DNA from: Schmidtea polychroa
Lineage: Eukaryota
Direction of reading: 5' to 3'
Assembly: GCA_044892525.1 (NCBI GenBank)
Contig: CM097885.1
Location: 11,844,001-11,908,000, forward strand
DNA length: 64,000 nt
The notes beneath the pieces were generated by a model. That model did not search any database, was not told the origin of the DNA, and saw only the letters and a program-made list of their open reading frames with translations. Below, piece after piece: positions 1-43,324 of the stretch. Every line of letters begins with the position of its first letter. The stretch's first letter is position 1. A program made the translations under genes and the position numbers.

Positions 1-3000
1 CAACTCCTAAATAATGCCCAAATGCGTAACTTAAGTTTTTTCCTAGCCACGCGCGCTTATCATCATTATTACTTAGGGCAATTTTCGAATTTTTAAAAGT
101 AAAAAGTTGGTGATTTCTAGTACCTATTCTAGTCTGCGGTACAGAAATCACCTGATTTGAATTATAGCAATTTAGATATGTTTCATGATTTATTGATGTC
201 CGAGATAATTTAACCCCCTTCGCTTTTACCGTTTCCTTACTACCTAAAAGACTATAACATTTAGGGCGTAAGAAAACCCATTCAGAATACCCTAATCCCT
301 TGCTCTCATCTTTAAACTTCCCGATGACCGAGTCAAGGTTCCTACTATACAAGGGGTGGGTTGGATCGTAATTTGACGTATCCAATAAATTATCTGAGAT
401 CATTTGAGGTAATAGAGTTGTTAATTTTAAATTTTTAATTTCTAAAAAGAAACTGTCGGTATCACCGGCAATAATATTAATTATATATTTATATTGGCGT
501 CTGTACTTCTCCAAATCAATATATTGGAGCTGGTACATCCGCAGTTTAGACAGATCTAGTACTGTTTGACCAATGTAGCTAGGTCTGTCTAAACAAATCA
601 CATCTTTTTCCAAATGTGCCGCAATCAGATCGTTATCGATTCTTATGGACTTTCTGAAAGTCGGCTTTGAGGAGTATACTATCATCTTTTCGGATGAATT
701 ACACAACCTCAAATTCATTCTTTTTTTCAAATTTTCAACCGATTTACCGTAAAGAGAGTTATTATACAATTTAAACAAGTCCCTATATATCTCGCTAGTA
801 GACTGAGATCGTAAAGTGGTGTTGGTGTCTATGTAGGATTTAAAGATAGGTCCTTGTTTAAACTTTATACACCTATGAATATTTACAACAACCGCACCTA
901 ATTCTATATACAATTTGAGAAGCCTCCAATGAAGAACATAGTTCCTCTTTGGCCAATGCGTAAGCATAAGCTTCTCAACTTTTGAATTAGGTGGGCACAA
1001 CTTTTCCGGCGCAAGCGGAAAATCATTCAAAAAGTCATGCACACATTCCGGAATATCGATATCGACCTCCATAGTATACCCATATGGAAGGTTATCAATA
1101 TCCGTGTTCATACATTCAAGTAAAACATCATTCAAGTTATTATTCACCCAAGAAAAATCACCATACGGAAGATTTTGGCTAAGAGCCCAACCATACAGAT
1201 TATTTATATCAATGTACAATAATTCTGTATCATCTGAAGTAGCCGTGTAATGTTTGTTAACAAATGTTAACCCACCCCGGATACCTCCCTCATAGAAATT
1301 ATACATTTCCATGTCCTGCAGAAGTTCTATTGGTTCCGTTAATGTCATAAGCGCTGAGGCCCATGACATACCGGGAATCCCGTAGAAATTAAGAGGATCC
1401 AGACCATTGTAAGCAATTGCCTTACCGCGGAATTGCTGAAAATAATCTGCGAGGAGGTATACGTCCAATTTTAGGTAGATTAACATATAATCTAACAAAT
1501 TATTACAGTTATGCTGACTCCAAATTAGTTGAGCCTCAGCGTACTGATCTTCCGTAACATCAGACCAAATAGGAGGTAATTCTAAAGTCGATTCAAGAAC
1601 ATCTAAAGAAGTAGCGAAATTATATGGAAAGATACCTTTAGAGTGAATCATCGACCCTTGAAAGACAGACGAAGTCAAAGGAAAAGTAGTTAAGGTTTTC
1701 ACAGCTTTTGCTAAAGAACAATTAACAAATTGCATGCTGTCAATAAAACGAACAGGCAATTTGTTAATATATGCAATTAAAGATATAAATTTTTCTGTAG
1801 AGGTAGGTATAATATTAAGTTCCCAAAGGGGAAAATCACTGAGACCATGTTTTAAAATATGGTGGAGGTCATAGCCTCGTAAATTATGAAAGACAACAGG
1901 TAACAATTTATTAATCCTGCGAGAGACATTGCATTTCCTACATGCCGCTCCGACATATCTACCTGTAAAATGACAATGATCTCTCACAGGATTAATAATA
2001 GATTTTTTACACAAATAACAAATAGTGGAAGATCGAAAGGCACGCTCCTGAGCAAAAGACAAAGTAGACATACCTTTATGACCTTGAAGTTCATAATATG
2101 GCAGGACAATTGTGACAGCAATTTCCTCCACTTTCCTCAAAAAATCCAAAATACAATTAGGTCCAAAAAAATAATAATAAAATTTTGTGTTTGTATAATT
2201 ATTAATTAATAAAAGACCTGCTGATATGGGTAAATGTATTTGATGATATGTTTCATGTTCTGGTAAAACCGATTCAAAATCGGCATAAATTACGAAGGGA
2301 GGTGTAACTGTTTTTGCGTAATCTGTGAATAATAAATCTTTATTTTTAGGAAGTGTATACAAGGTTGTGCCAGTCTGATTTTTACAGCATAGAGCAACAT
2401 GCTGATCGAAAGCATTCTTATATCTAAAGCCATTTAAACAACGTGGGCACCAGTTACACCTTATTTGAACGTTAACATTTTCATTTTCATGACAATTCAT
2501 TAATTTGTCCAAGTCTGTCACGGCCGTATAATGATATTTATCTTTATTACTCAAAAGTAATAAATAAATTGGTCTACCGTCTATAACCTTGGAGCGATGT
2601 ACTATATTAAGATGAGGGTGGTGAGCTACATAATCCTCAGAAATATCTAAATCAGAACTGGCTGGATTATACGAAAGAACGTTTATGCTTAAATTTAAAT
2701 CACGATTTTTCCTTTCAAATTTAGGAATGTTGCATAGCCTCATCGGGCAATCGGTGTCTTCGTCATAATTTAATAGAGGTAAAAATTCTATATATTTGGC
2801 GGCTCTTTGGTGATTACGACCTATTTCTTCTCTTTTTAAAAGTGCAAGAATGCTATACAAGAAGCACTTATGGTCGTTGTTTTTAACGTTAATTATTGCA
2901 TGTTTTAATTTTAAAGCCGATGGGGTTTTTATATAGCTATGTCCGGATAATCTACTAACGGGTGCGTATTTCGTTAAAATAAAATCTATTTCTAAAATAT

Positions 3001-4232
3001 TCACTACTCGCCACCCGCTTCCTAAATAGGTGAATTGCTCAATCTTTTCATTTAATTTGCTCACCCCCTCGTTTATAAAGTTTGATGTAAAAACTTGAGC
3101 ATTGTTTGAAAAATAATTATCCCGGATCTCCCCATCTTTTTCAAATTTAATTAAAATTGTGAATTGTATTTTTACATTGCCCATCTTTTCTATTTCCTCT
3201 ATTAATCTATCTTCAATTTTTGATGTTAGGGCTATTTTAACCAGGTTTTCATTTCTTATATTAAATTTTAATGTTTTACGTGATCCATTCAAATCGGATT
3301 CTACCGTAGGTTCAAACAAAGAGCCGCCTATTTGAAATATGTTGAAAGACGTTGAAGCTACACATTCATCATTGATGACTATCACTTCTTGTTGTGTAAT
3401 GGGTGATTGTTGTGTAATGGGTGCTTGTTGTGTAAACGATGTTGAAGCTACACATTCATCTTTGCTGATGACTATCACTTCAGGTCGCGATAATTTATTA
3501 GGAATGCAATTTTTAATTAAACCAGCAGGTCTTTTAATAGAATCTTTTTTAATATTTATAATATCTTTTTTAATAATATTTATAGTATCTTTTTTAATAG
3601 CATCTTTTTTAATAGAATCTGTTTTTTCTTTTATAATATTTTTTTTAATATTTTTTAAATCTTTTTTAATATCTTTTTTTATATCTTTTTTAATAGTATT
3701 TTTTGGTAAATTTTTTGATAAATTTTTTTGTAATTTTTTATTTATTTTTTTAAATAAAACATTTTTTGATATCGAAAATTGCCCTAAGTGACAATGATGT
3801 TTATTAAAAAATTCCCTATATTTTACTTTTTCTCTCGTTACACATTTGGGGCATATAAAAAAGTTGAGCGAATTAAACGTCTTTTTGTAGTATTTTCTCA
3901 TTGTGCGATGACATTTATCGCTATGTCCATTTGCAGCTTGGCAATAATTTGGGTATAGTTTACCTGTTAAATAATAAAATTAAAGTTTTATTTTTTTTCT
4001 AATTGTTATTAATTGTTACATCTATAAGGATTTATCATCATTTGTTATTTAATTCAAATGAACTATATAACAAATGATGATAAATCCTTATAGAAAATAG
4101 GTTAATATATTCGAGAGAATATTAGAGAGATTTTAGTAGATAGGTCAGATTATTATATGAATATGTTAAATATTAGAGAGATTTTAGTAGATAGGTCAGA
4201 TTATTATATGAATATTAGACGAGTCAGATTAA

Positions 4233-4297
<65 letters not shown>

Positions 4298-4462
4298 TGA
4301 AGAGAAGTAGCTGCATGCCCACTGCAGACTACTATGTAGCTACATGCTTACTGTAGACTACATTATTATTTATATTAAAGAGAAGTAGCTGCATGCCCAC
4401 TGCAGACTACTATGTAGCTACATGCTTACTGTAGACTACATTATTATTATTAATATTATTAA

Positions 4463-4529
<67 letters not shown>

Positions 4530-6198
4530 TTAACTATTGTAGATGCACATTGCAAACTACAAGGATTTATTTTATAACTATAATTTTGTAATCACTTTTT
4601 TAAATACTTTGATTATATTTCAAAAACATAGTATTTTCTTCATAATTTTCGTCATATTTTCATCATAATTTTGGTCATATTTTCATCATAATTTTGGTCA
4701 TAATTTTGGTCATAAATCATTTTCATTTTGTTCATAAATTTTCGTCATTATTTCATAATAAATCATTTTCATCATAATTTTCTTCGTAAATCATTTTCAT
4801 CATAATTTTGGTCATAAATCATCATAATTTGGGCATAAATCATAAATCATCATAATTTGGGCATAAATCATAAATCATCATAATTTGGGCATAAATCATT
4901 TTCTTCATAATTTGGGCATAAATCATCATAATTTGGGCATAAATCATAAATCATCATAATTTGGGCATAAATCATTTTCTTCATAATTTGGGCATAAATC
5001 ATTTTCTTCATAATTTGGGCATAAATCATCATAATTTGGGCATAAATCATAAATCATCATCATAAATCATAAATCATCATCATAATTTGGGCATAAATCA
5101 TAAATCATCATAATTTGGGCATAAATCATTTTCTTCATAATTTGGGCATAAATCATCATAATTTGGGCATAAATCATTTTCTTCATAATTTGGGCATAAA
5201 TCATCATAATTTGGGCATAAATCATCATAATTTGAGCATAAATTCATAATTCATTTTCTTCATAAGTTTGATCATAAGGTTCATCAAAATATTTAAGAAA
5301 TTTTCATCAAAATATTTAAAAAAAAGTGATTACGAAATTTAAATATCAAAAATATATATATATAGAATAAATAAATCTTACATTCTGATTCCATATCGGA
5401 ATCTGAGTCTTCAGCAACCGAACTGAGGGTATTATCATCAATTGTTACATTTTCCATAAAATCTTCATCGATGAAATCTGAGTCTTCAGCAACCGAACTG
5501 AGGGCATTATCATCAATTGTTACATTTTCCATAATTTCTTCATCGATGTCGACATTGAAATTAAACGCTAAAAAATAAAATTTTTAAAAATAAATTACTA
5601 AAGTAAATAAATTTACTTTTTTCTTTGATAACCTTGGTTTGCCCAACATCAATAACTGGGGCGTCCGATTGTCCAAGAAAAATAATATCTTCATCACTAT
5701 TTTCATTAACATTTTCTGTAATGCAAATTAATTTAATAAAAATTAAAATAAATTTACTTTTTTCTTTGAAAACATAGTTGTGCCCAACATCATTAACTGG
5801 GGCATCCGATTGTCCAAGAAAAATAATATCTTCATCACTATTTTCATTAACATTTTCTGTAATGCAAATTAATTTAATAAAAATTAAAATAAATTTACTT
5901 TTTTCTTTGAAAACATAGTTGTGCCCAACATCATTAACTGGGGCATCCGATTGTCCAAGAAAAATAATATCTTCATCACTATTTTCATTAACATTTTCTG
6001 TAATGCAAATTAATTTAATAAAAATTAAAATATTAAATTTACCAAATATATTTTCCACATTTAAAATGGCATCGTTTTCTGTAACTTCGTACCAGTCGAA
6101 TGGTTCTAAAATAAAATATAATAAAAATCGAATAAAAATAATAATAATTTACCGTTACTCAAAAGACTTCTCAATACTCGATTCTTGTTGGTTTCCAT
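1..6198 (-). CDS. polB: Protein-primed family B DNA polymerase (pPolB), spliced, runs off the window edge. Predicted exons 6198-6153, 6105-6043, 5997-5899, 5856-5758, 5715-5617, 5567-5382, 3963-<1
   Basis: Absent from the ORF track, most likely because there is no stop in the window; the two ends of the main exon are in the same frame. Minus-strand translation gives IYADFE, RDHCHFTG, FHNLRGYD, KGIFPY, IRGG, YIDINNLYG, NSLYGKS, AGDTDS and AKGV, collinear with the 36-40 kb pPolB. All six GT-AG introns are phase 1 and keep frame. Confidence 0.9.
4630..5290. repeat. Minisatellite of CATAATTTGGGCATAAATCAT-type units inside the long pPolB intron
   Basis: Direct tandem variants with ~21-28 bp units. 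Confidence 0.85.
5617..6030 (-). repeat. Three tandem copies of a 141-bp unit (99-nt exon plus 42-nt intron)
   Basis: Exon starts at 5997, 5856 and 5715, each preceded by TTGCATTACAG and followed by GTAAAT. Confidence 0.85.
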
Positions 6199-6551
6199 TG
6201 ATTTCAAATAGATTTTCGAATTGATTTTCAAAATTTCAAAATAATTGTGACAAATTTTAGATTTGTCAATGTTTATAAAGAGAATGAATATTTTCCTGTC
6301 CCAGCCAATGAGAATATAGACACACACACATATACATTGAATATTTTACTCTCTCAACCAATCACACGCATGCATGTATGTAATGTAAATCAGTCAGAAT
6401 TACATGTGACTGCCTTTGTTAGTCATGCCTTTGTTAACTTGCACTGTGCATGCCTCAGGCAAAGGCAGTCTTTATGTTACAAATAATAATATTTATTAGA
6501 ATAATAATAAAATTAATTAAAAATAATAATATTTTTCACAATAATAATAAT

Positions 6552-7111: not shown

Positions 7112-8335
7112 TTATACCAACACGGTTCTATTTGCAGTAATTTGAACTTCATTTTCAAATACTCCATATATTATAACATGTACTGGTTCTGTAATGGCTC
7201 TTGCAAACTTTATATCCAGTCGTAAATTCCCGTTTTGTGGTAATTGACTTTGATTTAAATCAAAATCAGGGGCTAAAACAAATGTAAAAAATGGGTATTT
7301 GCTTTTAAAATCTTCTAGTGTTATTCCGCAATTCAAATTTTTATCTAAATAACCCAGATTTCTAACAATACTCTGCATATATGTCGCACAGTAATTGTCA
7401 TTCTCGAAATCTTGAATATATGTTTCTCTATAATCAGTATTTTTCGACAAAGTCAATGATGTAACACCAAAGTTTTTGAAAATTGAGCTGGACGCAGTAT
7501 ATGATCCATTATATTGTGCTTCACTTTGAAATGTTATCAGAATAAAATTAGGCATTCTTCTGTCACCAAATATTTGTTCTTTATAGAATGATGAAGCACC
7601 TTTAGCAATAGCAAATTGTACAATTTCCTTTGTTTTTAATGGATAAATTGCATGTTTTGAATTAAGACCCAATTGATGACCTGCTAATACTGAGGGGTCT
7701 ACTCGAACTCTTCTCACCAATAATTTTGCATCAACTAATTGACATATTGGTGTAGTAGTTGCACTAGTAAGAGATAATGCAGAATCAGACCTTTTCAGTC
7801 TAATATGTACATTAACCCCCGGTAGTAAATATTTCGGTTGATCCATAAAATCAAGTTGTAACGATGAGCACATGGTGAAAACCTTTGAGCCTTTTACCCA
7901 CTTTTTTCTTTCATAATCTGCTGCTGCATAGCCCATAGGAGTAAGACATGTATTTTTAGTATCGGAATTGTAATTTAAAATAGTTTCTATTAATGCCTTG
8001 TGAATGAATGTATTATTTCCGCCCTCAATCTTAATATTATTAAATCCCAACACTGCATCTTTAAAAAGAGTATGAAACAGGAAATTGTTCGGTATTACAT
8101 CTGCATTGGCATCCAAAACTTTTCTATCTTTATCTACAACCTTAATCTGAACAGTCAATAAAGTATCATTCAAATCTAAATATTCGGTTTGCGAACCATT
8201 AATATAAAACTCGATATCATTTCTACTATCGGTAATTGAATTCATAGGAAAAACTTCCTCAAATGCCCCAAATTCTATTACAGCCTGGGGCGACGGTCTA
8301 TCAAATATACATAATTCGGATTTACCACAAATCAT
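7112..8335 (-). CDS. Major capsid protein (double jelly-roll, PY/hexon-like)
   Basis: 407 aa. CGKSELCIF N-terminus, EYLDLNDTLL, QPKYLLPGVNVHIRL and C-terminal GNLRLDIKF are typical of Polinton MCP; position next to the protease fits. Confidence 0.9.
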   Translation of the reverse strand: MICGKSELCIFDRPSPQAVIEFGAFEEVFPMNSITDSRNDIEFYINGSQTEYLDLNDTLLTVQIKVVDKDRKVLDANADVIPNNFLFHTLFKDAVLGFNNIKIEGGNNTFIHKALIETILNYNSDTKNTCLTPMGYAAADYERKKWVKGSKVFTMCSSLQLDFMDQPKYLLPGVNVHIRLKRSDSALSLTSATTTPICQLVDAKLLVRRVRVDPSVLAGHQLGLNSKHAIYPLKTKEIVQFAIAKGASSFYKEQIFGDRRMPNFILITFQSEAQYNGSYTASSSIFKNFGVTSLTLSKNTDYRETYIQDFENDNYCATYMQSIVRNLGYLDKNLNCGITLEDFKSKYPFFTFVLAPDFDLNQSQLPQNGNLRLDIKFARAITEPVHVIIYGVFENEVQITANRTVLV

Positions 8336-8703
8336 TTTGCAAATATAGTTCCATGTCCTTTCATTCGTTTGTTTATACGTGATATTCCATGTCTTTTACG
8401 TTTTGGAGCATGAGCTGGAGCTGGAGCTGGAGCTGGTTTTTGAAACATACCTGCAACCCCGGGTAAAACTTTCCCTAATTCTGCTAAAGCATTTGTTTTT
8501 AGAGATGGTAATATTTTCTGTTCATTCATAATAACATCTTTTGCAGTTTTCATACCAAAACTACCGATACGTTTAAGAATAGGCAATGCAAATCTACCTA
8601 TTGTTCTCAACCATCCTGATCCGTACTGTTTACCAATAAAATATGGTAAATCACCACCAGATTGGCTACCACTATACATACTAATAATATCAGAATTAGC
8701 CAT
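8332..8703 (-). CDS. Small Polinton core/PW-like precursor protein
   Basis: QSGG and QYGSG motifs followed by an amphipathic helix (WLRTIGRFALPILKRIG) and a basic tail. It overlaps the MCP start (ATGA). Confidence 0.7.
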   Translation of the reverse strand: MANSDIISMYSGSQSGGDLPYFIGKQYGSGWLRTIGRFALPILKRIGSFGMKTAKDVIMNEQKILPSLKTNALAELGKVLPGVAGMFQKPAPAPAPAHAPKRKRHGISRINKRMKGHGTIFAK

Positions 8704-9708
8704 TTATTTTACGAAAATGTAATGTCAAATGAGTTTTTGAGCCTTTTGGAAATTCGATTAATTGACCAGAATCATCTCTTATATTTATTTCTATATTGTT
8801 TATACAAGATGTTGAAACAGGTAAATACATGGGATTTTCTACATTGATTTGTACAACTTCATCTTGATCATGTTTTTCAATCCATATAGATTTCATTAAA
8901 GGTACACTAGAATCGCCAACAATAACTGGTTCCACGATATTACTGTAAATGAACATTTGCTGATGATGTTTAAGGATTTTCGGTTTGTTTGTTCCTTCAC
9001 AAATTTGTTCATTTTGTGTACATACTGGTTTAGTCAATCCTAATGTTTTTGTCAAATTTGAGTCAAATTTAACTTGACTAAGATTAGAATTTATACTAAA
9101 TCTAAATACTTTATCTTTTTGAAGCTCAAAAACTGTTAAAATATCGCTACAATTGTCACCTAAATAAGTTTGTAATTGTTCGAGGTCTGTAATATATAAA
9201 TTATCTTTAAAAGTATATGCATGCTCTGTTATTTCAATGTATGACAGCTTAAATTTGAATTCCACTAAATTATTAGTTTTCGGAAGTGTAGAGAGATTTA
9301 TTTTGACTGTATCATTAAATACATTACGTAAATCAGTAAATCCAAGACGTTTAGCATCAGCCACTGTAGAAAATATAATTTCGAATGACTTATTCAAGCA
9401 ATTCATGTATAAATATTGACCATCATCATAAATTATAGGTTTCCTTGATTTCGATGAACTCGTCAAGTTATAATTATCTTTATCAATAAGAACATTAATA
9501 TATTCCGTTACTGCTACTTTCTTATTATATTCAATAACAGATTTGCTATAGATTGGGAATAAATTGTATACAAATGTAAAATCCAAAAGAGCAACTTCCC
9601 AGTCATTATCCAAATAGATAGGGTTTTGGAGTTCGATGATGAATTTGCTTGATTTTCTGGATGAATTAATGGACAACTATTGCTCGGCAAAATAGTATAA
9701 AAATTCAC
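8696..9708 (-). pseudogene. Minor capsid protein (penton, PX); GTG start and a frameshift near 9646-9650
   Basis: The N-terminal motif FYTILPSNS..HPENQA is in a different frame from KFIIELQNPIYLDNDWEVAL. The C-terminus MFIYSNIVEP..GDS..PLM..NPMYLPV..IEINIRDDSG..LHFRK is intact. Confidence 0.8.
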
Positions 9709-10337
9709 TTTACTAGGTCTTTTGCTGATATCCATGACGGGTTTTGATAACCATGCCATTTGACATAGTATTGTTTATCCTTGCCGACCTTTTTAGTTTT
9801 CAATATTTTTTGAATTCTAAATACTTTTGGGGGAGGAATGACTTGTAATTCCTGCTCATAAAATTTCCCCTGTAAAATATTATTATCATTGTCTTTGATG
9901 ACATACATTACAGGATTCTGTTTAGTATTTATTTTTGAAATTACAAAGACTTCATCACTCCAATTTGTATCAAAATTTTTAATAAATGGTGATGCACTAA
10001 TTTTACTAATTCTAACATGGTCACCGACTTTATATTTAGGTTTTGCAATTTTTACAGATTTCTTAGAAGTCAATGATGTTTTTGATGTAATATCAACCGG
10101 TCTCAATCCATTCAGTCCTCGATGTGATGAATGATTATAACTTGTTATTATTTTCGGTAAAGCATTTACCCATTTTTTATTACCTTGATGCACGAACAAT
10201 TTCTTTAATCGATCTCTCAATGTTCGATTAAATCTTTCAACATGGGCAGCTTTGTATTGAGAATGTACCGAGTAGTGATTTATTTTCAGTTTATCGAGGA
10301 TTTGCTTAACTTTACTATTGTAGAATTCTTTACCTAA

Positions 10338-10417
<80 letters not shown>

Positions 10418-10805
10418 CTAAATCTGTTTGCAAGTTATTAGGATGTCCGTCTTTAAATAAAATATTAATTGCCTTGGACATTTCTTCTGCAGATTTTGCC
10501 TTGACCGGTATTGCTCGTGCAAACCTGCTGTATACATTAATACATGTTAAAATATATTTATTCCCATTGTTAATTTTCGAATATGGTATCATCTCCATCA
10601 AATCCATTTGCCATAAATCGTCAATACCAAATGTTTTATACGCTCTTGTTGGAAATCTTTTCCGCATTGGTTTGTTCAAACTGTACGCAAGCTGATCTGA
10701 TAACCACTTCTGGGTTTCTTTTTTCGAATTCGGAACTCTTTTGTTTAATTTTGCCACTCCACCGAAACCGGCTTCGTCTTCTGGGTTCGTCCAAATCTTC
10801 TCCAT
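9705..10805 (-). CDS. int: Retroviral-like (rve) integrase with C-terminal chromodomain; intron 10417-10334
   Basis: Motifs WQMDL, TDLG|KEF, HVERFNRTL, YNHSSH and YYVKWHGY. The poly-Ile run is an 84-nt GT-AG intron. Confidence 0.92.
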
Positions 10806-10863
10806 TACAACAAGAAGATTTAAAATTAAATTTAATGTCGGGCAATGAAGGATTAGCACCCAT
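10636..10863 (-). CDS. Putative myristoylated small protein overprinted on the integrase 5' end
   Basis: MGANPS fits MGxxxS, followed by SSCC. The ATG lies 3 nt after the upstream stop in context ACAATGG. Confidence 0.55.
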   Translation of the reverse strand: MGANPSLPDIKFNFKSSCCNGEDLDEPRRRSRFRWSGKIKQKSSEFEKRNPEVVIRSACVQFEQTNAEKISNKSV

Positions 10864-10866
10864 TGT

Positions 10867-11400
10867 TTATGATTGATTTCCTACAACTCCACCTAATAAT
10901 GATAATGCCAGAGGTATTAATGCGCCAATAAATCCACCTTGTTGTTTATATATAATTTTTCTCATTTGCTTACGATTTTTATTATTTACTAAAGATAACA
11001 ATGGTTTCCTATGTTTGCTCAATAAATGCTTTTTTGATTTACTGATTTTAATTTTGCCTTTGACTACTTTAAGTATAATATTGAGTAAATCATCGACAAC
11101 AAAATTTGGGAATGATTGCAATATATTCATTCTTTTCATACTCGGGGCCTTTAACAATGCATTAAAAAATGGAAAACTGCGATGATTTTTAACTACTTTT
11201 TTACCGGTTTTACGGATTTTACGGGTTTTACGTTTAGGTTTAGGATTTTTCGAAATAAGATTCATTGCAGAGAAATTTTCAGTTACAAGTTTTTTAGATG
11301 GTGTATAACTAGTTGTTGGTGGAACTTTTGGAACTTTAATAGTCTTTCTAATACCTTTTCTTAATTTCCTAATATTTTTCACCCTTGCTTTTAGAAACAT
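10867..11400 (-). CDS. Basic Polinton conserved protein (PM-like core precursor)
   Basis: Lys/Arg-rich, ending in KQQGGFIGALIPLALSLLGG; lies between the ATPase and integrase. Confidence 0.7.
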   Translation of the reverse strand: MFLKARVKNIRKLRKGIRKTIKVPKVPPTTSYTPSKKLVTENFSAMNLISKNPKPKRKTRKIRKTGKKVVKNHRSFPFFNALLKAPSMKRMNILQSFPNFVVDDLLNIILKVVKGKIKISKSKKHLLSKHRKPLLSLVNNKNRKQMRKIIYKQQGGFIGALIPLALSLLGGVVGNQS

Positions 11401-12045: not shown

Positions 12046-12144
12046 TTCAAAGATTTTATAAATGTGTATTTGTTTATATTCGATGATTTAATGAACTCAT
12101 GCTCAATTTGTATATAAAGACTAATTTTCATAAATGATTTAATA

Positions 12145-12582
12145 ATGTTAGCAAATATAAATTATCGAGGAAATTTTGATGTATCGAATATGAGGTTCCC
12201 ACCAGGGAAACCTCAGCAAATTATCGATAGAAGCGGGAAATATCCGATAATATTTTTCAAGACTGGTAAATGCAGAATCATGGGATGTAAGAAACCTTTG
12301 GATATTAATAAATTACAATATCGAATAAATAATATTAAAATCCAATCAATTACCGTTACTATGGATATGGGACATAGTATCAATCTATATAACATGTCGA
12401 AAAAATGTGATTGTATGTTTGAACCGGAATTGTTTCCGGCACTAAGACTAATAAAATATAACCCTATATGTGTCAACGTGTTTGCTAGTGGAAAGGTTGT
12501 CATGTTGGGGTTGAGAAATTTGGAGTATAGAGAATTTGTTGACAATGTTCGAAATGAGATAATTTCATTGGTCGATTTTTAA
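12145..12582 (+). CDS. TATA-binding protein (TBP)-like protein, 145 aa
   Basis: KIQSI..FEPELFPAL..VFASGKVVMLG resembles the TBP C-terminal repeat (FKIQN..YEPELFPGL..IFVSGKVVLTG). IIFFKTGKCRIMGCK resembles the N-terminal repeat (LIFSSGKMVCTGAK). Confidence 0.8.
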   Translation: MLANINYRGNFDVSNMRFPPGKPQQIIDRSGKYPIIFFKTGKCRIMGCKKPLDINKLQYRINNIKIQSITVTMDMGHSINLYNMSKKCDCMFEPELFPALRLIKYNPICVNVFASGKVVMLGLRNLEYREFVDNVRNEIISLVDF

Positions 12583-17139: not shown

Positions 17140-20100
17140 TAGGGTGGGTCGAAAATTTTTTTTTTCTCCAAACATGCCTAAAAAGTTGTGCTTATGCTAG
17201 AAAATGAAATATCCCTGCAAAAGACTGCTGTTTAAAAGGGTTTACAGGTCCCAACTTTTGTTTGTATGTATTAGTACTATCCCAGTAAAAATGCTCGCAC
17301 ATGTGCCATTGTAAATTCATCCTGCAAGCAGTCACACGCTTGCAGAAAGACCATTTTTGACATGCTCTATTCACAAGTCCAAGCTAACGCGTGCATGTAT
17401 AGAGAGGTTAATTCACGGAAGCACCTTCACACAAGCACTCACAAAGACAATTTCTTCTGAACAATACTAACACACACACTACAGTCAACACATAATCCAC
17501 ATGGATACTACTAGTCAGTCTAAACTCAGATAATTTAATTTGTTTCGATTGGATGTCAAGTGTTTGCTGGACATAATTAAAAAAGTTAACTTGATGATTC
17601 ACTTTTATTTTGCCAGAGCTGAGTACAGAAGAGCAGTTATGAAGGGACAGAGAAATAAGCAATTTCGCAAAACAAGAAGTAAATCACGTCATTGTCTGTT
17701 TGGTCAAACTTGTGAACTACCCAGAAACCAATTACCTACTTGTGAAGATGTGTTTCGTGATTACTGTTACAATGAGAAATGTACGCAATTTCATACTGGC
17801 TTTAACGAACAAGCAACTCTTCTCGCAAATAAGGTGAAGGAAATTTATATGAAGGCAAGTATCCCAACTGTTGAGTTCAGTAGTATTGTGGTTCGTGTCA
17901 AGCGACTAATATCAAAAGTGCGTGAATTAGAGAAGTATCCAGTATGCAAGAGGTCATCTGCCAAATTTCAAGATAAGTTAAGCTCGTTTTCCAAATTGTT
18001 TGACATATGTTGCTGCAAATGTTTTAATGATGGTGCTCGTGGAAGAAGTCAGTGTACATGCCGATTGGCCTTGAAAATTCCTACCTTAGAGTGGGAGTTC
18101 TGGATTGACCAACAAACTACCAGAAACATGAAAATCGGAAATACGGACAGACAGGAAACCTCAAAATTGAAGAGAAAACAAACGAAAAGCAGCCCTACAG
18201 GAAAAGGAAAACAAATGAAAAATGAAATAATGGACACTGAAGTTAACGATCTACATCCGACCTCAAGAAGTGACACGGAGAGTGAAGCCGCTAGTGATGA
18301 AAGTAAAGATAAGTTAGACAATTCAACAGAAAGCTCAGAGTCAAGCGTAGAAGAATGTGATGAATTTCAAAATAGAAGACATTATCCTGAATTAAGTAAA
18401 GCTGTTGACAGATGTGGTGTGAGCAACAGAGACACGTGTTTGCTAGTAAACGCTTTTCTGAAAGATATGGAACTGTTATCCTCTCAAACAATCATCGATC
18501 CCGCAAAATTACGGCGTCAGAGAAAGTACTGGAGGGAGAGAGAAATTGAACAGCATTCAGCAGAAGCGAAAAACTTGATTTGCCTCGATTTCGACGGGAA
18601 ACAAGATTCCACCTTACTTCATAGAAGGATCCTAAAAGAGGAGCATTATGTGATTGTCGCCTTTCCAGGGGATACATATATCGATCATGTTGTACCTCAA
18701 AGTAGTAAAGCTGTGGATATTGGCAAAGAAATCATGTCAATCATCGTTAGCACGCAGTCCTCACTGACCCTTCAAGCAATTGTGTGCGATGGAACCAATA
18801 CAAACACCGGAAAAAATAATGGAATAATCAGAAGACTCGAAAAAAGCCTAGGGCGACCTCTACAATGGCTGATATGCTTGTTGCATGCAAATGAATTGCC
18901 ATTCAGGAAGTATTTTTCAGTCGTCGATGGTGGAGAAACAAAAGGTCCAAAAACGTCATGTGGTGAAATAGGAAGCGTTCTTGATTTTGATCCAAAAGAC
19001 AAGCCCGTAGTAGCCTTTATGTCCCTTCCTGGAAAGGTCGTAGATATTAGTGAAAATGTCAAGAAAGAATTGAACACTGATCAATTGTATTTCCTCAGAG
19101 TATGCTTGGCAGTCCAGAAAGGGTACCACAACAACAAGGATGTCCCTTTTCTACAAATGGCACAACCAGGAAATTTGAATCACAGTCGCTGGCTAACGAA
19201 AGCTAATAGAATTCTGCGACTATATATGTCCGAAACTGCTCCATCTGAACCTCTCATGCGAATAGTGAAATTTATTGTCAATTTCTATGGACCGTCATGG
19301 TTTTATATAAAGATTCACTCGTCATGCCAAGATGGTGCAAGAAATATTTTTTATATGCTCCAACTTCTGCAGGATTTGGATCCATCAGACCAAGAAATCA
19401 TCTTTCCTGTCATTCAGAACAACAATTACTTCTCACATCCAGAAAATATACTCCTAGCTGCTGTTGGTGATGATGATGAAGAAATCAGAAAGTTTGCAAC
19501 AGAAAAAATCATAACTGCAAGACAAAATTTTCTCCCTTCCGAAGTGATTCGCACTATGGACAAGAATACTGTCTTTCTTCAGTCGTCTGCTACATCATAT
19601 GCTGACATGATTGACTGGACAAAATGTAATTTGACGCCTCCCCCTCTTTTATCTCATATATTGGATCATGAATTGAAGATGAATAAGAAAATTACATTAG
19701 AACAATTTCCCTGTCATTCTCAAGCCGTTGAAAGAGCCATCAAAGATGTTTCTTCTGCCAGTTGCAAAGTGTTTGGTCACAAGTCCAGACATGGTATGGT
19801 ACTACTGTGTAAAAAATCAAGGAAGGAATTGCCCAAGGTGCAAAGCAAAGCTGATTTCATGTGACTTCTTTTTATGCCCTCGCTAATACATTTCTAAACT
19901 TTTGGCTGGATGTTTTTAATAAAAAATAATTTCGAAAGTTGATTTTTGTCTTTGAAAAGGATAATTCAAATTTGGCCCTTCCTAATCACTGACGTTGTCA
20001 GGATATATTTCAATGCGGGATGAGGACACAGAATATACTATCTCAGCCCAAGAGAGTAAATAATATACTTATAAGCTCTTAAGAAAGCTACATCTAAATA

Positions 20101-24100: not shown

Positions 24101-26044
24101 TGTCATAATTAACTGTAATGTATTCTTCATTTTTTAATGAATTATAAAAAGAAACTGAGAAATATAAAATTAAAATTAAACTTTTATTTTCTAATTTTAA
24201 TTGTTATTTATTTCACACAAATTTTCTGCATAACTTTTTTCAGGTGTTTGTCAATTCATCTTAATTTATTTGTTTAAATCATTGGGGCTATATGAAAAAC
24301 GCTTAAAATTAATTAAAATTTCAATAATAAAATTTAAAAAATAGAAATTAAAAACAAAGTTAATCATTACAAAATATTCTGGATCCTACAAAGTATAAAT
24401 TAAAAATACAAAAAAATTAATTAATTAATTAAATAATTAAAAAATAATTTACGTCATTAATCATTATGATGGTTGCAACAAAATTGTTATTTCGCCATGC
24501 AAAAAAACAATCAGTTAAATTAATACAATTTTTATTTTTTATTTTAGAATCTTTTCAGTAGCTTTTAGAAAAAATGAGAAGTTAATGTTTAAATAGCATT
24601 TAAGTAAAAGTTAAAAAATCAAAATATGTAAAAATCGCATTTGTTGTCGAAAAAAGAGAGATTCAGGTGTAGTTAGGAGAGCCGTAACAAGGGTGGTGCG
24701 AGCGGTGGAGTCGCACAGGGCGCACATCTGAAAGAGGTGCAAAATTGGGATGTAACATTTTTTTAATGTTATCAAAATTTAACAAAATATAAATAAAATA
24801 ATTATCAAATGGCATTCACGAAACAAAATGGCAAATTAGGTAGCCTGTCTTTAACATTACTGTTGGACTGGTCTATTAGGTGTGTATTTTGTAAAATATT
24901 AGTTCACAAAATGGGTTCTTGAGTAGGTAGTTAGGAGCCTACGGGAACAATAGGGGGGGGGGTAAAAAATGTTGCAAACTTTTGATTGCATAACTTTTTC
25001 CGTAGACATTTTTTGATTACATAATTGTTGCCGTAATGCCCAATGTTTTCTGGGATTTTAAATACAAAATTTTTTTTTCAATAAACAAGCCAAGGATAAA
25101 TATTATTTGGGTGGGTCTCCTTGGTCCTGAGAATTTCAATAGAAAAAGGTAGTCTTCAATAAAAAAGCATGGATTTTTCACACAATAGTGAGGGGATCTT
25201 CTTGGTCATGAGAATTTCAATAGAAAAGATGGTTTACATTAAAAACACATAGTAAATTTTTAAAATAAAGCAAATTATTGGTCTAAAATTTAAAAATAAA
25301 GTAAATGATGGGTCTAAAAAATTTAAGTAAATCAGGGTTCAGATTTTTTTTGAAATAAAGTAAATTATGGTCTAAATAAGTAAATTATGGGCTAAGATTT
25401 TTCAATTAAAGTAAATTATGGTCAAAATTTTAAAATTAAAGTAAATTAAGGTTCTAAAAATTAAATTACAGTAATTAATGGTCCAAATTTTTAAATTAAA
25501 GTAAATTTAGGTTCTAAAATATTAAATTAAAGTAAATAATTGTTCAAAATTTAAAATTAAAGTTAATTAAGGGCTCAACTAAGTAAATTATGGTTCAAAT
25601 TTTTAAATTAAGTAAATAATGGTTCTAAAAATTAAAGTAAATTAAGGTCCTAAAAAATTAAATTACAGTAAATAATGGGCACAAATAACTAAATTAAGGT
25701 TCTAAAAAATTAAATTAAAGTTAATTAAGGTCCAAATTTTAAAATTAAGTAATCAATGGTAAAAAAAAATTTTAAATTAAAGTTAAATAAGTAAATTAAA
25801 GTAATAATTTTTAAATAAGTAAATTAAAGTAAGATTTTAAAATTTATTAACAAAAAGTTGAAATAATAGAAGGTGTTTGAGAATTGAAATTTTTTAATGA
25901 AAATTTTAATGAAATATTTTTCAATGATAATTTTTAATGAAAATTTTAATGAAATAATTTTTTAAGTAATTTTAGATGGAAATTTTTATGGAATATTTTT
26001 CAATGTTAATTTTTAATGGAAATTTTAATAGAATAATTTTTTTT

Positions 26045-26123
<79 letters not shown>

Positions 26124-26315
26124 TATTAGTAATAATATATCAACCAAATACTATACAACACATAAAAAATTAACTAAACACATAAAAATAACTAGACACA
26201 TAACAAAACATATAAACATTAACTAAACACATAAAAATGAACTAGACACATAACAAACATAAAAATTTACCAAACAAATAACAAATGTATAGATATAAAC
26301 TTTTATTTAATAAAA

Positions 26316-29300
26316 TTAGTCCTCATCGGACAAAATAACGTCATCGATATCGATGTCATCTTCTCCAAAATCTTCATTTAATTCTTCCTCATCTTCTCCA
26401 AAATCTTCATTAAATTCTTCCTCATCTTCTCCAAAATCTTCATTTAATTCTTCCTCATCTTCTCCAACAATTTCTGCAACATTTTCTCTAATATTAAATT
26501 CACTTAATCTTACATGCCCATATGCAAGACTAGTATTTTCCCCCACCCAAACCCTTTTGTCGTCTTTGTTTGTTAGTGCTATTTTTGTGTTTTTAATTGT
26601 AAAAATTTGATGATTTTTGCTTGTTATTTTAGTCTGAGGAACCGAAAAAATCTGGTTAGTGTTATAACAATCCAGGTATGACTGATGTTTTATGTCACTA
26701 CCTTTCAATGTTACACCTTTAGCCTTTTTTGTTTCCTCATCACCCAACAAGCTATAACATTTAGGTCTAAGAAAAACCCATTCCTTATATTTAAGACCTT
26801 TATTCTCGTCTTTGAACTTTCCAATGACTGAATCAAGGTTCTTACTATATAAGGAATGACAACTATTGTAATTGGAAGTATCTAATAAATTATCTCGAAT
26901 CATTGCAGGTAAAAGAACCTCGAGTTTACAGTTAATGACTTCGAGGAAAAAAGAATCTGTATCACCTGCAACGATATTAATTTTACAATTAAACTCATTG
27001 CGAAATGATTCCAGATCCTTATATTGCAATTCATACATTCTAAGTTTAGATAGATCAAGTACAGATTGACCAATGTAACTTGGTCTATCTAAACATATAG
27101 AATCTGAATTCAATAATGCCGCGATTAAATTATCGTCTATTTTAATAGATTTTTTAAAAGTTGGCTTCGAAGAATATTTAACTAATTTATCGGCTGTTGT
27201 ACAAAGACGAAGATTCATTCTTCTCTTTAAATTTTCAACTGTTTTGCCGTATAAACTGTTATTTAGCAATTTATAATAATTTTTATCTAAGTTATTTATG
27301 CTTTTTGACCTTAATTCTGTATTTGTATCTATATATTTTTTAAAAATTGGAGATTGCTTAAATCTTACACCCCTATTTACACGTGTTACTTTAACACCAA
27401 GTTCCAAATATAATTTTAATAATCTCCAATGAATAACATAATTAGATTTTGGAAGATGAGTTAATAATAATTTTTCAACCTTAGACCCAGCAGGTTTCAT
27501 TTTTTCAGCAGCTACAGGGAAATCATCCAACTTATCATGAAGCTCAGAAGGAATTACAAGATCAACTTCAAGAGTGTATCCATAAGACAAAGATTCAAGA
27601 TTTAAATTCCTACATTCATCTATTATTAAATCAAATCCATCAAGAACCCAACTAAATTCGCCACAAGGTAATGATTGACTTAAAGCCCAACCATAAAGAT
27701 TATTAATATCTATATAAAGTAACTCGGTGTTCTCGTCGGTTTTTACGTAATGCTTATTGACAAAAGTAAGACCGCCTCTTATTCCACCCTCATAAAAGCT
27801 AAACATTTCGTTTTCAGTTATGAGCTCAATTGGTTCATTTAGAGACATTAATGCAGAAGACCAAGACATACCTGGAATTCCGAAATAATTCAATGGTTCC
27901 AATCTATTGTGAGCAATGGATTTCAACCGAAACTGATGAAAGAAATCAGCCAAAAGAAAACAATCAAGTTTTAGGTAGATCATCATATAATCTAATAAAG
28001 TTACGCAATTAGTTTCTACCCAAATCTCCTGAGCTTTTTCATACTCAAGCTCAGTGACACCTTCCCAGATTGGTGGTAATTCATAAGTAGTTTGGAGAAT
28101 ATCTAAAGAAGTGGCGAAATTATAAGGGAAGATTCCTTTTTCAGAAACTATAGTACCAGAAAAAGCAGAATTAGTAAAAGGCAAAGAATTCAAAGTTTTG
28201 ACTGCTTTAGCTAAAGAATCATTGACAAATTGATAAGAATCAATGAATCTTAAGCTAATTTTGCCTAAATGAGCAATCAAAGAAATAAATTTTTCACTCG
28301 TTATTGGGATGCAACCTAAAGTCCAATTTTTAAATTTATTTAATCCATATTTAAGTATATGATGCATATCGTATCCCTTCAAGTTATGAAATACGATAGG
28401 CAAAATTTTATTTATTTTCCTATTTATGTTACATGTGCTACAAGCTGCACCCAAGTATTTGCCCGTAAAATGATCGTGATCTCTAACAGGATCGACGATA
28501 GATTTCAAACAAAGATAACAAACGGAAGCACTAAGAAATTGATGTTGTTCAATTTTCGTTAATTTTATCATTGGTTTCCTACCCATTTTATAATAAAAAG
28601 GAAGAACCTTATTTAATGCTATATCCTCTATAGCACTTAAAAAACTCTCGACGCAATCTAAACCTATGAATTGTTGATATGATTTAGATCCGTCAAAGTT
28701 ATTTACTAGTAAAAGACCAGCAGATATTGGCATGTGTCGTTGGAAATGAAGATTATCAGAAGGTAAAATAGCCTCAAAATCGGCATAAACTACAAAAGGA
28801 GGAGTTACTGTTTTCGACCAGTCAGTAAACTGTAAGAATTTATTTTGAGGGAAAGTGTAAAGAGTTGTTCCTAATTGATTACGTTTACATAATATTTCAT
28901 GTTTTTCCAGTGCGTGTTTATACCTAAACCCATTCAAACACCGATGGCACCATAATGATTGTATGCGTGTAGGACAACTAGTTTTTATGTGGCAATTCAG
29001 TAACCTATTTAAATTACTTATAGCGACGTAATGGAAATTGTTTCCTTTATTTAATAATAGTAAATTAATTACAGTTCCATTTAAAACTTTGGAACGATGT
29101 ATAATGTCTAAATGTGGATGTTTTAAAACGTAATTATCTGTTAATTGTTTGCTATTGTCATAAGAAAAAACATTAATTATTAAGCCGGGATTTTTGGCCT
29201 CAAATTTTCTAATGTCTTTTAATTTCATGGGTAAATCTAATGGATTATATATTAAGTCTGATAAATTATAACTGGACGTCCTATTTCTATATTGTCTAAC

Positions 29301-30729
29301 AACCTCATCATATTTTAAAATAGCTAAAATGCTATATAAAAAACATGAATCATCGGTGTTTTTTATATTAATTAAACAATATTTATTTTTTAGACAAGTA
29401 GGTAGTTCAATGAAACTCCTACCACTTAATCTACTTAACCTACTTATTTTTGTTATGGTGAAGTGGATTTCAGTTATTTTTTTTATGATCCAACTACTTC
29501 CTAACTCTGTGATATTACTTATTTTCTCGTTTAGTTCCCTAATGCCTTCGTCAAAAAATGATGCAGTTAAAGGTTTTGCGTAATTCGAAATATTATTAAC
29601 CTTTATTTCCCCGTCTTTTTCAAATTCGATTGTTATTCCGAATTGAATTTTGACGGAGCCTAATTCGTTAATAATATCTCGTAATTTTATAATTAATCGT
29701 TCTGGAAATATTATTTCCTTTATATTCAAGTCGCTAGTATTTAAACTTAAAATTTGATGTGTACCCCTTAAATCTTTCTGTATTATGGGAACATTACCCC
29801 CTATTTGTATTATATTTAATCCATCCCAAGAATCAAAGGAATTGAATAATCCGACCTGGGATTCAACAACTAATCCGACCTGGGATTCAACAAAAGGCAA
29901 TCCGACCTGGGATTCAACAAAAGACAATCCGTCCTGAAATTCAACAACCAATCCATCATTGGATTCAACAACTAATCCGACCTGGGATTCAAAAGAAGAA
30001 GTATCTAATTTAATTTTTTTATTTGTATTATTTTTTTCTATAGTCGAAGGTCTTTTAAAAACACTATCTTTTTTAAAATTAAACCTATCTAAATGTTGTT
30101 TATGTTTATTATAAAAAACACTATATGTTACAGGGTCACTAGTCTTACATACGGGACATATAAAATATGTTTTATTATAATATTTTTTCGTGTAATAATT
30201 CTCCATTATAGAATGGCAATTATTATCATGTTCTTTCGATGAACAATAATTTGGATAAAGTATACCTATAAAATAAAAATTTAATAAAAAAAATATATAT
30301 ATAATTTAAATGAAATATTTTAATAAATGTTTACGCAAAAATTTACAAATTTTATTTACTAAAAAAAAATAAAAATTTACTAAATTAAAAATATTAACAT
30401 TTAATTAAATAAAAAATTATATTAAATTTCCTTTAAATTATATAAAAAAGTAATCAATACTTACATTGTAAATTTTCATTTCGATTTATTGACACATTGA
30501 CATAATTTTTCTCTTTATTCGTATTACCTAAATTATTAATTAATTAAATCAATAAATTAAAAATTATGTTTACTTTTTCTTTTCAAATTTCCTTTAATCT
30601 TCGATTTTAAATTGTCTTCATTAATATTATCTAAATTAATTAATAAATTAATTAATAAATAAATTAAAATTTACCAAATTCCTGAATTTTTTCTCGAACA
30701 TTCATAACGTTTTCTATTAAAGAATTCAT
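26316..30729 (-). CDS. polB: pPolB, left-arm copy; exons 30729-30675, 30630-30574, 30527-30465, 30265-26316
   Basis: 1296-aa ORF with Exo motifs (YADFE, HNLKGYD, YLKLD) and Pol motifs (YIDINNLYG, KLLNNSLYGK, GDTDS, KAKGV), an OTU-like NTDDSCF..HY segment, and upstream phase-1 micro-exons. Confidence 0.93.
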
Positions 30730-33004
30730 TTTTAAAGGTTAATTATTTGTTAAATGTGAATAATGATTGATTATTGTTTATAGATTATTATTGTTTATAG
30801 ATTATTATTGTTTATAGGAACAAATTCTAACCAATCAAAATCAAGGAAGGGTAGGGAAAAAATATATTACGTTGGGGTATTTTAAAATTGAAATTTATTT
30901 TAAAAACACATTTTGACGTTAAAGTCGAGTTATGTAACAAAGACATAATAAACTTATTATTTACTACAAATATTTCACCTATTTAATACCTAACTAGAGA
31001 TGATATATATTGATTGTTCATAAAAGCAAACTTAATCATATATTTCTGTATATTATTTTGTATATTATTTCTGTAAATTATCAAGTAAATTTAAAGTTCT
31101 TGATAAGGTTAAAATCATCATTAAAGCTTTAAATTTTTTAATAAATCAACATGAAATTCTTAGAAAATAATTGAAAAAAAAATATTATTACAAAGTCATA
31201 TCCTATCACGTGATTATTAACCTAACTGTCATTAAAAATAATTTTTATTTAAAATTAAAAAACCAATCAATAAAAATGCATCCAATTATCAAGAAATTAA
31301 TTAATAAAAATGCATCCAATTATCAAGAAATTAATTAATAAAAATGCATCCAATTATCAAGAAATTAATTAAATTTATCTTAGAACTAACTTAAAATTTT
31401 TAAATATTCATTCTATTCACATGAAATTCATGAAAATGATAAAAATTCACAAAAACCATCAACTCTAAAAAAAAAAATTACTAATGAATACCTTAAACAC
31501 AAAAATTTATCCAAATAATCTTTCAAATTAATTCATTAAAATTGAAGACAACACGCTCTATTTCGTCATTACATTCAATTAAAATTAAATAAAACAAGAT
31601 AAGAACTTTGATAAAAAATATTATTCTAAAATGGTAAGAATTAACACTGTAGTGTTAAATGAAAAGGTAATTATTCTTTAAATCTAATTATAATTATAAT
31701 CATATTTTTCTTTAATTTAACTCTTTATTTACTTAATTTAGTCATTGTTTACCGAATATAGAAGTTTAAAATATAGACCATTGATTACTTTAATTTAAAA
31801 ATGTATCCCTTAATTTACATAATTTCCATCTAAAATTATTTCAAAAAATTTTTTTTTTAAATTTGTCATTGAAAAATATTTCATAAAAGTTTTCATTAAA
31901 AATTATCTTAAAAATTATTCCATAAAAATTTCCATCTAAAATTACTTAAAAAAATTATTTCATAAAAATTTTCATTAAAAAATTTCAATTCTCAAACACC
32001 TTCTATTATTTTGTTAATAAATTTAAAATCTTACTTTAATTTGCTTATTACATTACTTATTTAAAAATTATTACTTTAATTTACTTATTTAAAATATTTG
32101 ACCATTGATTACTTAATTTAAAAATTTGGACCTTAATTTACTTTAATTTAATTTTTTAGAACCTTAATTTACTTTAATTTTAAATTTTGAACCTTAATTA
32201 ACTTTAATTCAAATTTGGACCTTAATTTACTTTAATTGAAAATTTTAGACCTTAATTTACTTAATTGAAATTTTAGATCTTAATTTACTTATTTATCTTT
32301 AATTTACTTGAGTTTAAAAATATATACCATAATTTACTTAATTGAAAATTTTAGACTTTATTTTAGAACTTAATTGAAAATTTCAGACATTAATTTACTT
32401 AATTGAAAATTTTAGACCATAATTTCATGTAAAATTTTAGACCATAATTTACTTATTTGAATATTTTAGACCTTAAATTGCTTAATTTAAAATTTTAGAC
32501 CTTAATTTGCTTATTTATCTTTAATTTACTTAAGTTTAAAAATATATACTATAATTTACTTTAATTTAAAATTTTATACCATAATTTACTTAATTGTAAA
32601 TTTTAGACCATAATTTCATGTAAAATTTTAGACCATAATTTACTTAATTGGAAATTTTAGACCTTAATTTGCTTATTTATCTTTAATTTACTTAAGTTTA
32701 AAAATATATACCATAATTTACTTAATTGAAAATTTTAGACTTTATTTTAGAACTTAATTGAAAATTTTAGACCTTAATTTGCCTAATTGAAAATTTTAGA
32801 CCTTAATTTACTTAATTGAAAATTTTAGACCTTAATTTGCTTAATTGAAAATTTTAGACCTTAATTTACTTAATTGAAAATTTTAGACCTTAATTTACTT
32901 AATTGAAAATTTTAGACCTTAATTTACTTAATTGAAAATTTTAGACCATAATTTTAATGTAAAATTGTTATTGAAAAAATTTTCATTTCTCAGGCGCCGT
33001 TTAT

Positions 33005-33311
33005 AGTAGGTAGTTAGTGGCCCGCTGCAAATGCAAGCCTTTTTTTATGCGGCACGATTTTTTTTTTACGGCAACTTTTGATTGCGCAATTGTTGCAACT
33101 TGTTTTTTTTTTTGTATTGAAAATTCTAGAAAAAAAAATAATACAGTTGCGTAATAATCCAAAAAAAAAATACAACAAAAAAAACTAGTTGCAACAATTG
33201 CGTAATAAAAAGTTGCAACAAAAAAAAGTTGCAACAAAAAAAAAGTTGCAACAACCCCCCCCCCCCCCCCGGGGGGGGGTAATTGTTGCAGCGGGCCACT
33301 ATCTACCTACT
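33005..33311. other. Central junction module bounded by terminus-like inverted repeats
   Basis: AGTAGGTAGTTAGTGGCCCGCTGCAA...TTGCAGCGGGCCACTATCTACCTACT, with an asymmetric interior containing GTTGCAAC repeats and a poly-C/poly-G run. Confidence 0.8.
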
Positions 33312-35449: not shown

Positions 35450-35520
35450 GATTGGTTAGAATTTGTTCCTATAAACAATAATAATCTATAAACAATAATA
35501 ATCTATAAACAATAATCAAT
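35450..35520 (+). promoter_or_regulatory. Putative Pol II promoter of the right-arm pPolB (inverted CCAAT plus triplicated TATAAACAAT)
   Basis: GATTGG at ~35450 and three TATAAA units 45-90 nt before the predicted ATG at 35557. The element-1 pPolB shows the same layout. Confidence 0.5.
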
Positions 35521-35556
35521 CATTATTCACATTTAACAAATAATTAACCTTTAAAA

Positions 35557-39994: not shown

Positions 39995-40186
39995 TTTTAT
40001 TAAATAAAAGTTTATATCTATACATTTGTTATTTGTTTGGTAAATTTTTATGTTTGTTATGTGTCTAGTTCATTTTTATGTGTTTAGTTAATGTTTATAT
40101 GTTTTGTTATGTGTCTAGTTATTTTTATGTGTTTAGTTAATTTTTTATGTGTTGTATAGTATTTGGTTGATATATTATTACTAATA

Positions 40187-40247
<61 letters not shown>

Positions 40248-42795: not shown

Positions 42796-42846
<51 letters not shown>

Positions 42847-43066: not shown

Positions 43067-43143
<77 letters not shown>

Positions 43144-43235
43144 TAAAACAATAAAATGATAATTTAAGCCTTTTGCTGCAAATAATGTATTTAATGAAAG
43201 AATTTTCGACTATACGATAGTCCTTGTCAATCTCC

Positions 43236-43324
<89 letters not shown>

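Follow-up and report, generated by a model that had tools for sequence, protein, structure and literature searches.

The protein-primed family B polymerase (pPolB) of alpha adintovirus-type Polinton/Maverick elements has the order TP, vOTU, exonuclease and palm in the available sections of 10.1101/2024.03.18.585575 and PMC8502044, and the former source, in those sections, proposes for polintons a vOTU cleavage between TP and vOTU. According to the accessible parts of the respective studies, the core genes of intact vertebrate Mavericks (PMC8097293) and of nematode Mavericks (10.1101/2022.07.12.499685) are intronless. Introners are contained in dinoflagellate Maverick/Polinton-like proviruses (available sections of 10.1101/2025.03.18.643946) and group I introns in some PLVs (available sections of PMC12220804). 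Spliced pPolB leaders were not found in the literature searched, including the accessible portions of 10.1101/2023.08.22.554363, PMC8502044, PMC11296320, PMC7851563 and PMC5718144; supplements and Repbase element maps may bear on novelty.

Here we describe a Polinton/Maverick pPolB gene that probably begins with a spliced, acidic leader, in a window of 64,000 nucleotides of Schmidtea polychroa DNA, the whole stretch that was analysed and to which all coordinates refer. The locus has the gene set of ATPase, rve integrase, adenain-like protease and pPolB as well as the catalytic motifs in common with Polinton/Maverick elements, and putative OTU-type Cys/His motifs lie ahead of the exonuclease in both. 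What sets it apart from the described elements is that its core genes have predicted spliceosomal introns and that its pPolB has an N-terminal Cys/His domain and the predicted spliced acidic leader. Spliceosomal introns within Polinton-like elements would be shared with the dinoflagellate proviruses, but the introns there are transposon-made, whereas those described here share no sequence except by tandem duplication, are almost all in phase 1 and are clustered in a disordered N-terminus. In adenovirus, the E2B polymerase and pTP mRNAs obtain their first residues from a tiny upstream exon, and the present gene would likewise encode a protein-primed polymerase with a start supplied by splicing; it differs in its predicted 197-aa leader, six exons, host-size micro-introns, tandem exon duplication, fused TP and location in an integrating element. 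Symmetric class 1-1 exon duplication occurs in animal genes, where 3n exons between phase-1 introns are likewise duplicated without loss of frame, although the units here are low-complexity peptides rather than folded domains and lie in a virus-like element.

Element 1, from position 1 to ~16876 of the window, was identified as Polinton/Maverick type from its gene content, based on ORFs and Pfam matches. Its minus strand carries an A32-like ATPase (Pox_A32, E 3.5e-7), an integrase ORF at 9705-10880 (rve, E 1.4e-5, a value under the curated cut-off for an ORF that contains an intron, plus Chromo), two capsid-sized ORFs, an adenain-like protease (Peptidase_C5, E 3.6e-6), the leader region and the pPolB ORF. 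The capsid-sized ORFs at 7112-8395 and 8696-9676 are candidates for double and single jelly-roll capsid genes by size and position, and a Pfam-type search gave no informative family match for them. One terminus of the element is likely at 16876, where the sequence fits a 5'-AGT start, which we take to be typical of Polinton ends; the opposite terminus lies outside the window start. The pPolB ORF (2..3979, minus strand) is open over 1326 aa and extends beyond the window start. Following the domain order in the available sections of 10.1101/2024.03.18.585575, its main exon encodes a Cys/His double zinc-finger-like domain, a K/I-rich linker, a TP-like part, a vOTU-like part, an exonuclease with an EndoVII-like insert, and the polymerase. 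The alignment shows conserved exonuclease and polymerase motifs, as expected of a family B polymerase. PF03175 is carried by the homologues P0001-4, 6 and 8, and gave no match in the window pPolB protein itself. The vOTU-like part was assigned by motif and order, with DxxCFLYS and HYxAV in the alignment consensus.

Several further features were seen at this locus. The integrase ORF has a putative phase-1 GT-AG intron at ~10332-10417 (minus strand) that is nearly all (TAT)n microsatellite, is in-frame and translates as poly-Ile. A TBP-like gene (PF00352, E 1.2e-15) lies within element 1 at 12118-12582 on the plus strand; TBP-like genes are named among MELD virus genes in a figure legend of PMC8502044, in the part of that source available. 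Two transposase-like ORFs of ~760 aa, belonging to DNA transposons that adjoin the Polintons, are found at 17534-19864 (plus) and 52048-54318 (minus) and had no Pfam match. A second nested set of long inverted repeats, without long ORFs, occupies 41918-50957 with its center near 46400.

Table 1. Features of the pPolB 5' region in element 1 (window coordinates)
Feature	Position	Strand	Description
Putative Pol II promoter of the pPolB transcript	6225..6365	-	two CCAAT-type boxes and TATAAA; predicted function
Exon 1	6153..6198	-	46 nt, begins with ATG
Intron 1	6106..6152	-	47 nt, phase 1, GC 0.09
Exon 2	6043..6105	-	63 nt
Intron 2	5998..6042	-	45 nt, phase 1, in-frame, stop-free; template for introns 3 and 4
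Exons 3, 4, 5	5997-5899, 5856-5758, 5715-5617	-	99 nt each; 42-nt introns 3 and 4 between them
Intron 5	5568..5616	-	49 nt, phase 1
Exon 6	5382..5567	-	186 nt, acidic, internal 75-nt duplication; last letter is the T of the predicted Cys codon
Intron 6	3964..5381	-	1418 nt, phase 1, GT..AG (predicted)
Hairpin	4021..4094		36-bp arms, 94% complementary; RNA fold z -11; ~57 nt upstream of the pPolB acceptor
Main pPolB exon	2..3963	-	from ORF reading, alignment and homologues; continues past the window start

The sizes and positions of the six upstream exons proposed in the initial annotation were confirmed from the sequence (Table 1), as was its claim that all introns are in phase 1: GT-AG ends and phase 1 were each found in 6/6. 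Its term micro-exon fits exon 1 only, the other exons being larger and the tiny parts of this gene being its introns. The five short introns have a GC content of 0.08-0.12 versus 0.30-0.37 for the exons, and a phase-blind chain search, a GC-driven heuristic built for this analysis, returned exactly introns 1-5, with a score of 132 compared to 38 when phase 1 was forbidden. The leader comprises 197 codons and is acidic, as had been claimed, with 49 D/E versus 10 K/R over 192 full codons. Since introns 2-4 are all 3n long and stop-free, ORF 5561-6148 reads straight through them. The predicted spliced product has at least 1518 aa in total, the pPolB exon continuing past the window start. Intron 6 holds a minisatellite (4632-5254) between ~40-bp inverted repeats (4582-4620 and 5299-5339), a foldback-insertion-like arrangement that enlarges the intron; it also has (AAT)n runs and 78x2 and 51x2 repeats. 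By eye, the minisatellite unit and the pPolB exon start are alike at 13/15 nt.

The annotation had further described a tandem exon triplication and growth by exon duplication, both of which were borne out. A unit of 141 nt, consisting of an intron plus an exon, stands in tandem at 5617..5997 on the minus strand (TRF period 141, 3.0 copies, 97%). Exons 3 and 4 have 0 differences, and each with its intron is 100% identical to the other. Exon 5 differs from both at 7 nt in 6 codons, with 5 nonsynonymous changes, all of them beyond codon 16, which places at least one of the duplications further back in time. The triplication arose by recent duplication of the intron+exon unit. Because the unit includes the intron, introns 2-4 are one duplicated intron and hence not three independent phase-1 events; with phase-1 introns on either side of a 3n exon, every duplicate keeps the frame and passes on phase 1. 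The hallmarks of symmetric duplicated exons, namely 3n length, equal flanking phase and tandem copies, are all present. The complete identity of the exon 3 and exon 4 units, the single readable copy and the repeat-rich intron 6 are also what would be seen if the triplication or the long intron 6 were a private, neutral or assembly-made trait of a silent copy. We regard this as highly improbable, considering that no stop interrupts the six exons or the 1326-aa ORF, that exon 5 differs from exons 3 and 4, and that sister copies show spliced forms.

Splicing was examined in contigs of 4 of 12 sequencing runs (X1, X2, X3 and X5; X1-X3 were guessed to be RNA) aligned to 5300-6460, a region in which X2 had no aligned contig. 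The aligned stretch ended at 5300, so that the exon 6/pPolB junction lay outside it, and coverage of 5300-5377, the start of intron 6, by X5 and not by X1 or X3 was not counted as evidence. One X1 contig has a 52-nt jump with the joint 6100->6153 and 5 variant letters, corresponding to excision of the 47-nt intron 1 together with a variant exon start (depth 3.56, a 30-letter side, aligned at 90% likeness); 0 contigs in X3 and X5 have this joint, and another X1 contig retains intron 1. Four X1 contigs have a loose end at 5617 that continues with 23/30 identity to the exon 6 start, the last 8 letters being exact, and intron 5 is thus removed there. With 8 other letters in 77 and 23/30 identity, these spliced contigs represent diverged sister copies and not the copy in the window. 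Of the 5 introns within 5300-6460, 2 (introns 1 and 5) were thus seen to be removed, in sister-copy contigs guessed to be RNA; no joint for introns 2-4 was among the joints listed, and the pieces listed there were unspliced, including an X3 piece (piece 10) that crosses the intron-2 acceptor. A further 141 loose ends lay beyond the listing.

The idea that the exons are skippable found no support. No exon-skipping joint was among the joints listed, from contigs that cannot resolve identical repeats, and contigs cross the intron-2 boundaries unspliced. Short introns are normally recognized across the intron, which would favor retention over skipping. It is conceivable, if quite improbable, that the leader is joined to pPolB with introns 2-4 often or always retained, the 'triplicated exon' being part of one long exon. 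Equally improbable is the corollary that variation arises by in-frame retention, adding 15, 14 and 14 hydrophobic residues, and not by exon skipping. All three introns are 3n and stop-free, their acceptors are weaker (T8 versus T11-13), and only unspliced pieces were among those listed for them, whereas introns 1 and 5 show spliced forms. Against retention, their GC content of 0.11-0.12 is like that of true introns and their sites are canonical, assembly into contigs merges repeats that are nearly identical and the runs may include DNA, and loose ends keep the intron letters while the neighboring exon varies in a codon-like manner. We favor splicing of introns 2-4 as predicted from the chain.

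The six-exon acidic leader probably joins the main pPolB exon at 3963. As had been claimed, donor T|GTAAG at 5381 and acceptor CAG|GT at 3963 give C-K-L-Y-P-N-Y-C in the frame of ORF 2..3979; the letters and frame hold, and the junction itself is predicted by comparison. Of 44 proteins matched by a profile of the N-terminal domain, 27 cover the junction position and all 27 have Cys there, while unspliced genomic read-through has Gly where the splice would create Cys. The join is likely on the grounds of this restored, conserved Cys and of a second element in the window that shares the acceptor and a phase-1 leader. A nearly identical junction motif lies four residues from the Met of one homologue (P0083). 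Donor 5381 ranks 1/70 on a matrix from 18 introns of relatives. Acceptor 3963 is tied second among YAG sites by T-tract score and is the best within intron 6; it ranks 12/81 on the 18-intron matrix, whose training set is without any CAG. An unspliced start near 3960 was rejected, as no in-frame Met occurs until 21 codons past the acceptor, and a start at that Met would lose two Cys and one His.

The Cys/His domain probably binds zinc, judging from its Cys/His pattern. Its model (P0082, 30 sequences) has a pLDDT of 88.5 overall and 85 for residues 1-10; a single-sequence fold of P0083 was uninformative (pLDDT 34). A fold search of the domain against PDB and BFVD gave no match at E<=0.001 (best Z 2.4), its top weak rows being C2H2 fingers over 33 columns, and a PDB sequence search gave 0 matches. 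The domain itself is tandemly repeated 2-3x in P0080, P0081, P0085, P0091, P0105, P0115 and P0005. There were 0 matches for residues 6-72 among proteins of 728-2319 aa, 0/2008 candidates for the unspliced exon 2 to exon 5 read-through among longer proteins, no usable match for the exon 6 peptide in Atlas, and no related locus confirmed in scans of viral contigs and a first metagenome scan.

An alternative start for pPolB would be a 22-nt first exon of its own (4041-4020, donor 4019 GTAACA, 56-nt intron) spliced to the same acceptor, with the six exons forming a separate acidic protein of ~200-230 aa, or with both isoforms made. The Cys would then follow the Met by seven residues, as it does in most homologues and in the intronless relatives L003, L004, L005 and L007; the intron size is typical, and such an exon arises in only 209/5000 resamples of the intron tail, in a post hoc test. 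Nevertheless, donor 4019 ranks 23/70, ATG 4041 lies within the 3' arm of the 36-bp hairpin (of which no second copy was found within the window), no CCAAT box occurs within 200 nt and the only TATA-like box is TATAAG at -51. Element 2 has an equal acceptor without such an ATG, and exon 6 would need another acceptor, none in intron 6 having an equal T tract. We consider this start rather unlikely, and the join of exon 6 to pPolB is the preferred reading.

The putative promoter of the leader has ATTGG at -164 and -111 and TATAAA at -79 relative to ATG 6198, and element 2 has a similar layout, with ATTGG at -106 and TATAAA at -87. The 8-mer GATTGGTT occurs 9 times in the window versus 3.6 expected. 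An X3 contig that runs on the minus strand through 6203-6460 ends at 6203 in an A run, just before the pPolB start codon; this is possibly the poly(A) end of an upstream capsid/protease transcript.

The pPolB of element 2 (35981-39994, plus strand; mirror copy 26316-30305, minus strand) is 53% identical to that of element 1. Its acceptor lies at the homologous base (36021), and it has a T|GTAAG donor and phase-1 leader exons of 55, 57 and 63 nt, and possibly a further exon of 12 or 24 nt; no in-frame ATG was seen near its acceptor. The surrounding stretch, 24953-41226, is a large palindromic element (center near 33150-33280) with two near-identical, outward-facing pPolB genes, each with phase-1 leader exons, and contains no capsid-sized ORFs. 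The leader of element 2 is basic and without sequence likeness to the acidic leader of element 1, which argues against a conserved leader function.

Relatives were sampled by fetching 80 loci, of which 13 were close (43-55%) and 8 had at least 1.3 kb upstream of the match and were examined. Four of the 8 (L003, L004, L005 and L007) have no coding intron and no leader and start a few residues before the Cys. The other four (L001, L006, L012 and L014) have short-intron chains in pPolB, in phase 1 except for one L006 intron: L012 and L014 each carry three introns in phase 1, located past the Cys/His domain, L006 has four introns, one called phase 0, and L001 has four introns and its own duplicated 66-nt linker exon, a duplication independent of that in element 1. 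As the leader is absent from the first four while relatives carry phase-1 chains, it appears to be a lineage-specific addition. Outside element 1, 17/18 predicted introns are in phase 1, though these are not independent. Proto-splice bias was rejected as insufficient to explain phase 1 fully: of the AG|R sites in the ORF, 67/127 are in phase 1, the share of about half that codon usage alone would give, versus 17/18 for the introns, and most junctions are not AG|R. Phase 1 is also not special to the leader, being found in the integrase intron and in the linker introns of relatives. Phase-1 chains with exon duplication recur, as predicted from these sequences, in the disordered N-terminus of this Polinton clade. 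Just before the start codon of the otherwise intronless L007 pPolB, an acceptor-like T tract and AG at 300-320 are perhaps part of a 5' UTR intron.

The initial annotation had also described the 99-nt exon as carrying a SUMO-interacting-like acidic motif. SDEDIIFL, an acidic/hydrophobic pattern of this kind, is present in each 99-nt exon but is not above shuffles (p=0.069 for exon 3, 0.154 for exon 5), and no enrichment was found family-wide, with a strict match in 1/8 N-termini tested (2 of 10 were dropped, having no boundary). We consider it unlikely that the exon serves as a SUMO-binding module, with duplication and skipping adjusting the number of its copies. SUMO-interacting motifs (SIMs) have a hydrophobic core with an acidic flank, a pattern that IIFL after acidic residues would suit; the first 16 codons are unchanged between exons 3 and 5, the nonsynonymous changes falling in the second half; loose ends of sister copies keep the acidic-then-hydrophobic stretch; and the main exon has a VIVI-type repeat with 1 strict match (p=0.044). 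The shuffle result for exon 3, the 0 strict matches in 7/8 N-terminal parts tested and the lack of a skipping joint among the joints listed speak against such a module, as does one sister variant with F at the first core position, which suits an Atg8-binding pattern equally. The unchanged codons and kept stretch leave a short binding motif possible. Short tandem acidic-hydrophobic repeats, which mostly failed the strict SIM filter, were also noted in pPolB linkers and tails of the clade (P0002, P0003, window 3340-3480 and ~39840-39990). We rather infer that the leader is a tolerated acidic tail growing by duplication.

We propose the following model for this 5' end of a Polinton/Maverick pPolB in a genome that is AT-rich and has introns of ~45 nt. 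Transcription would be driven by a promoter near 6280, and splicing would unite the six small exons with the main pPolB exon at 3963. The product would carry a 197-residue, acidic and probably disordered leader before the Cys/His domain, whose first Cys would be made by the last junction, and the leader would have grown, with the frame kept, via tandem duplication of the 141-nt unit. If the vOTU cuts between TP and vOTU, the terminal-protein fragment on the DNA ends would retain the leader. Rather than being a switchable module, the leader would there most likely serve as a low-specificity acidic tail that pairs, for instance, with the neighboring Lys-rich linker or with basic proteins of the host chromatin. 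A bolder proposal, which we hold to be unlikely, is that a clade of Polintons uses host-type exon duplication as a regular means to remodel the terminal-protein end of its polymerase, different lineages gaining and multiplying phase-1 mini-exons before or after the Cys/His domain; in the family of the present element the duplicated exon would be a SUMO- or Atg8-type binding module that remains on the genome ends once the vOTU has cut, and copy number together with alternative splicing would set its valency.

What is new here are the junction-spanning contigs and exon duplication across genomes. As core Maverick/Polinton genes are annotated as intronless, ORF-based calls place the pPolB start at a Met inside the protein and miss the first half of the conserved Cys/His domain, and several homologue records begin at that internal Met. 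A spliced core gene would tie the element to the host nucleus and its minimal-intron machinery, and would bear on host range and on the question of virus versus transposon. The leader offers a compact example of ongoing exon duplication.
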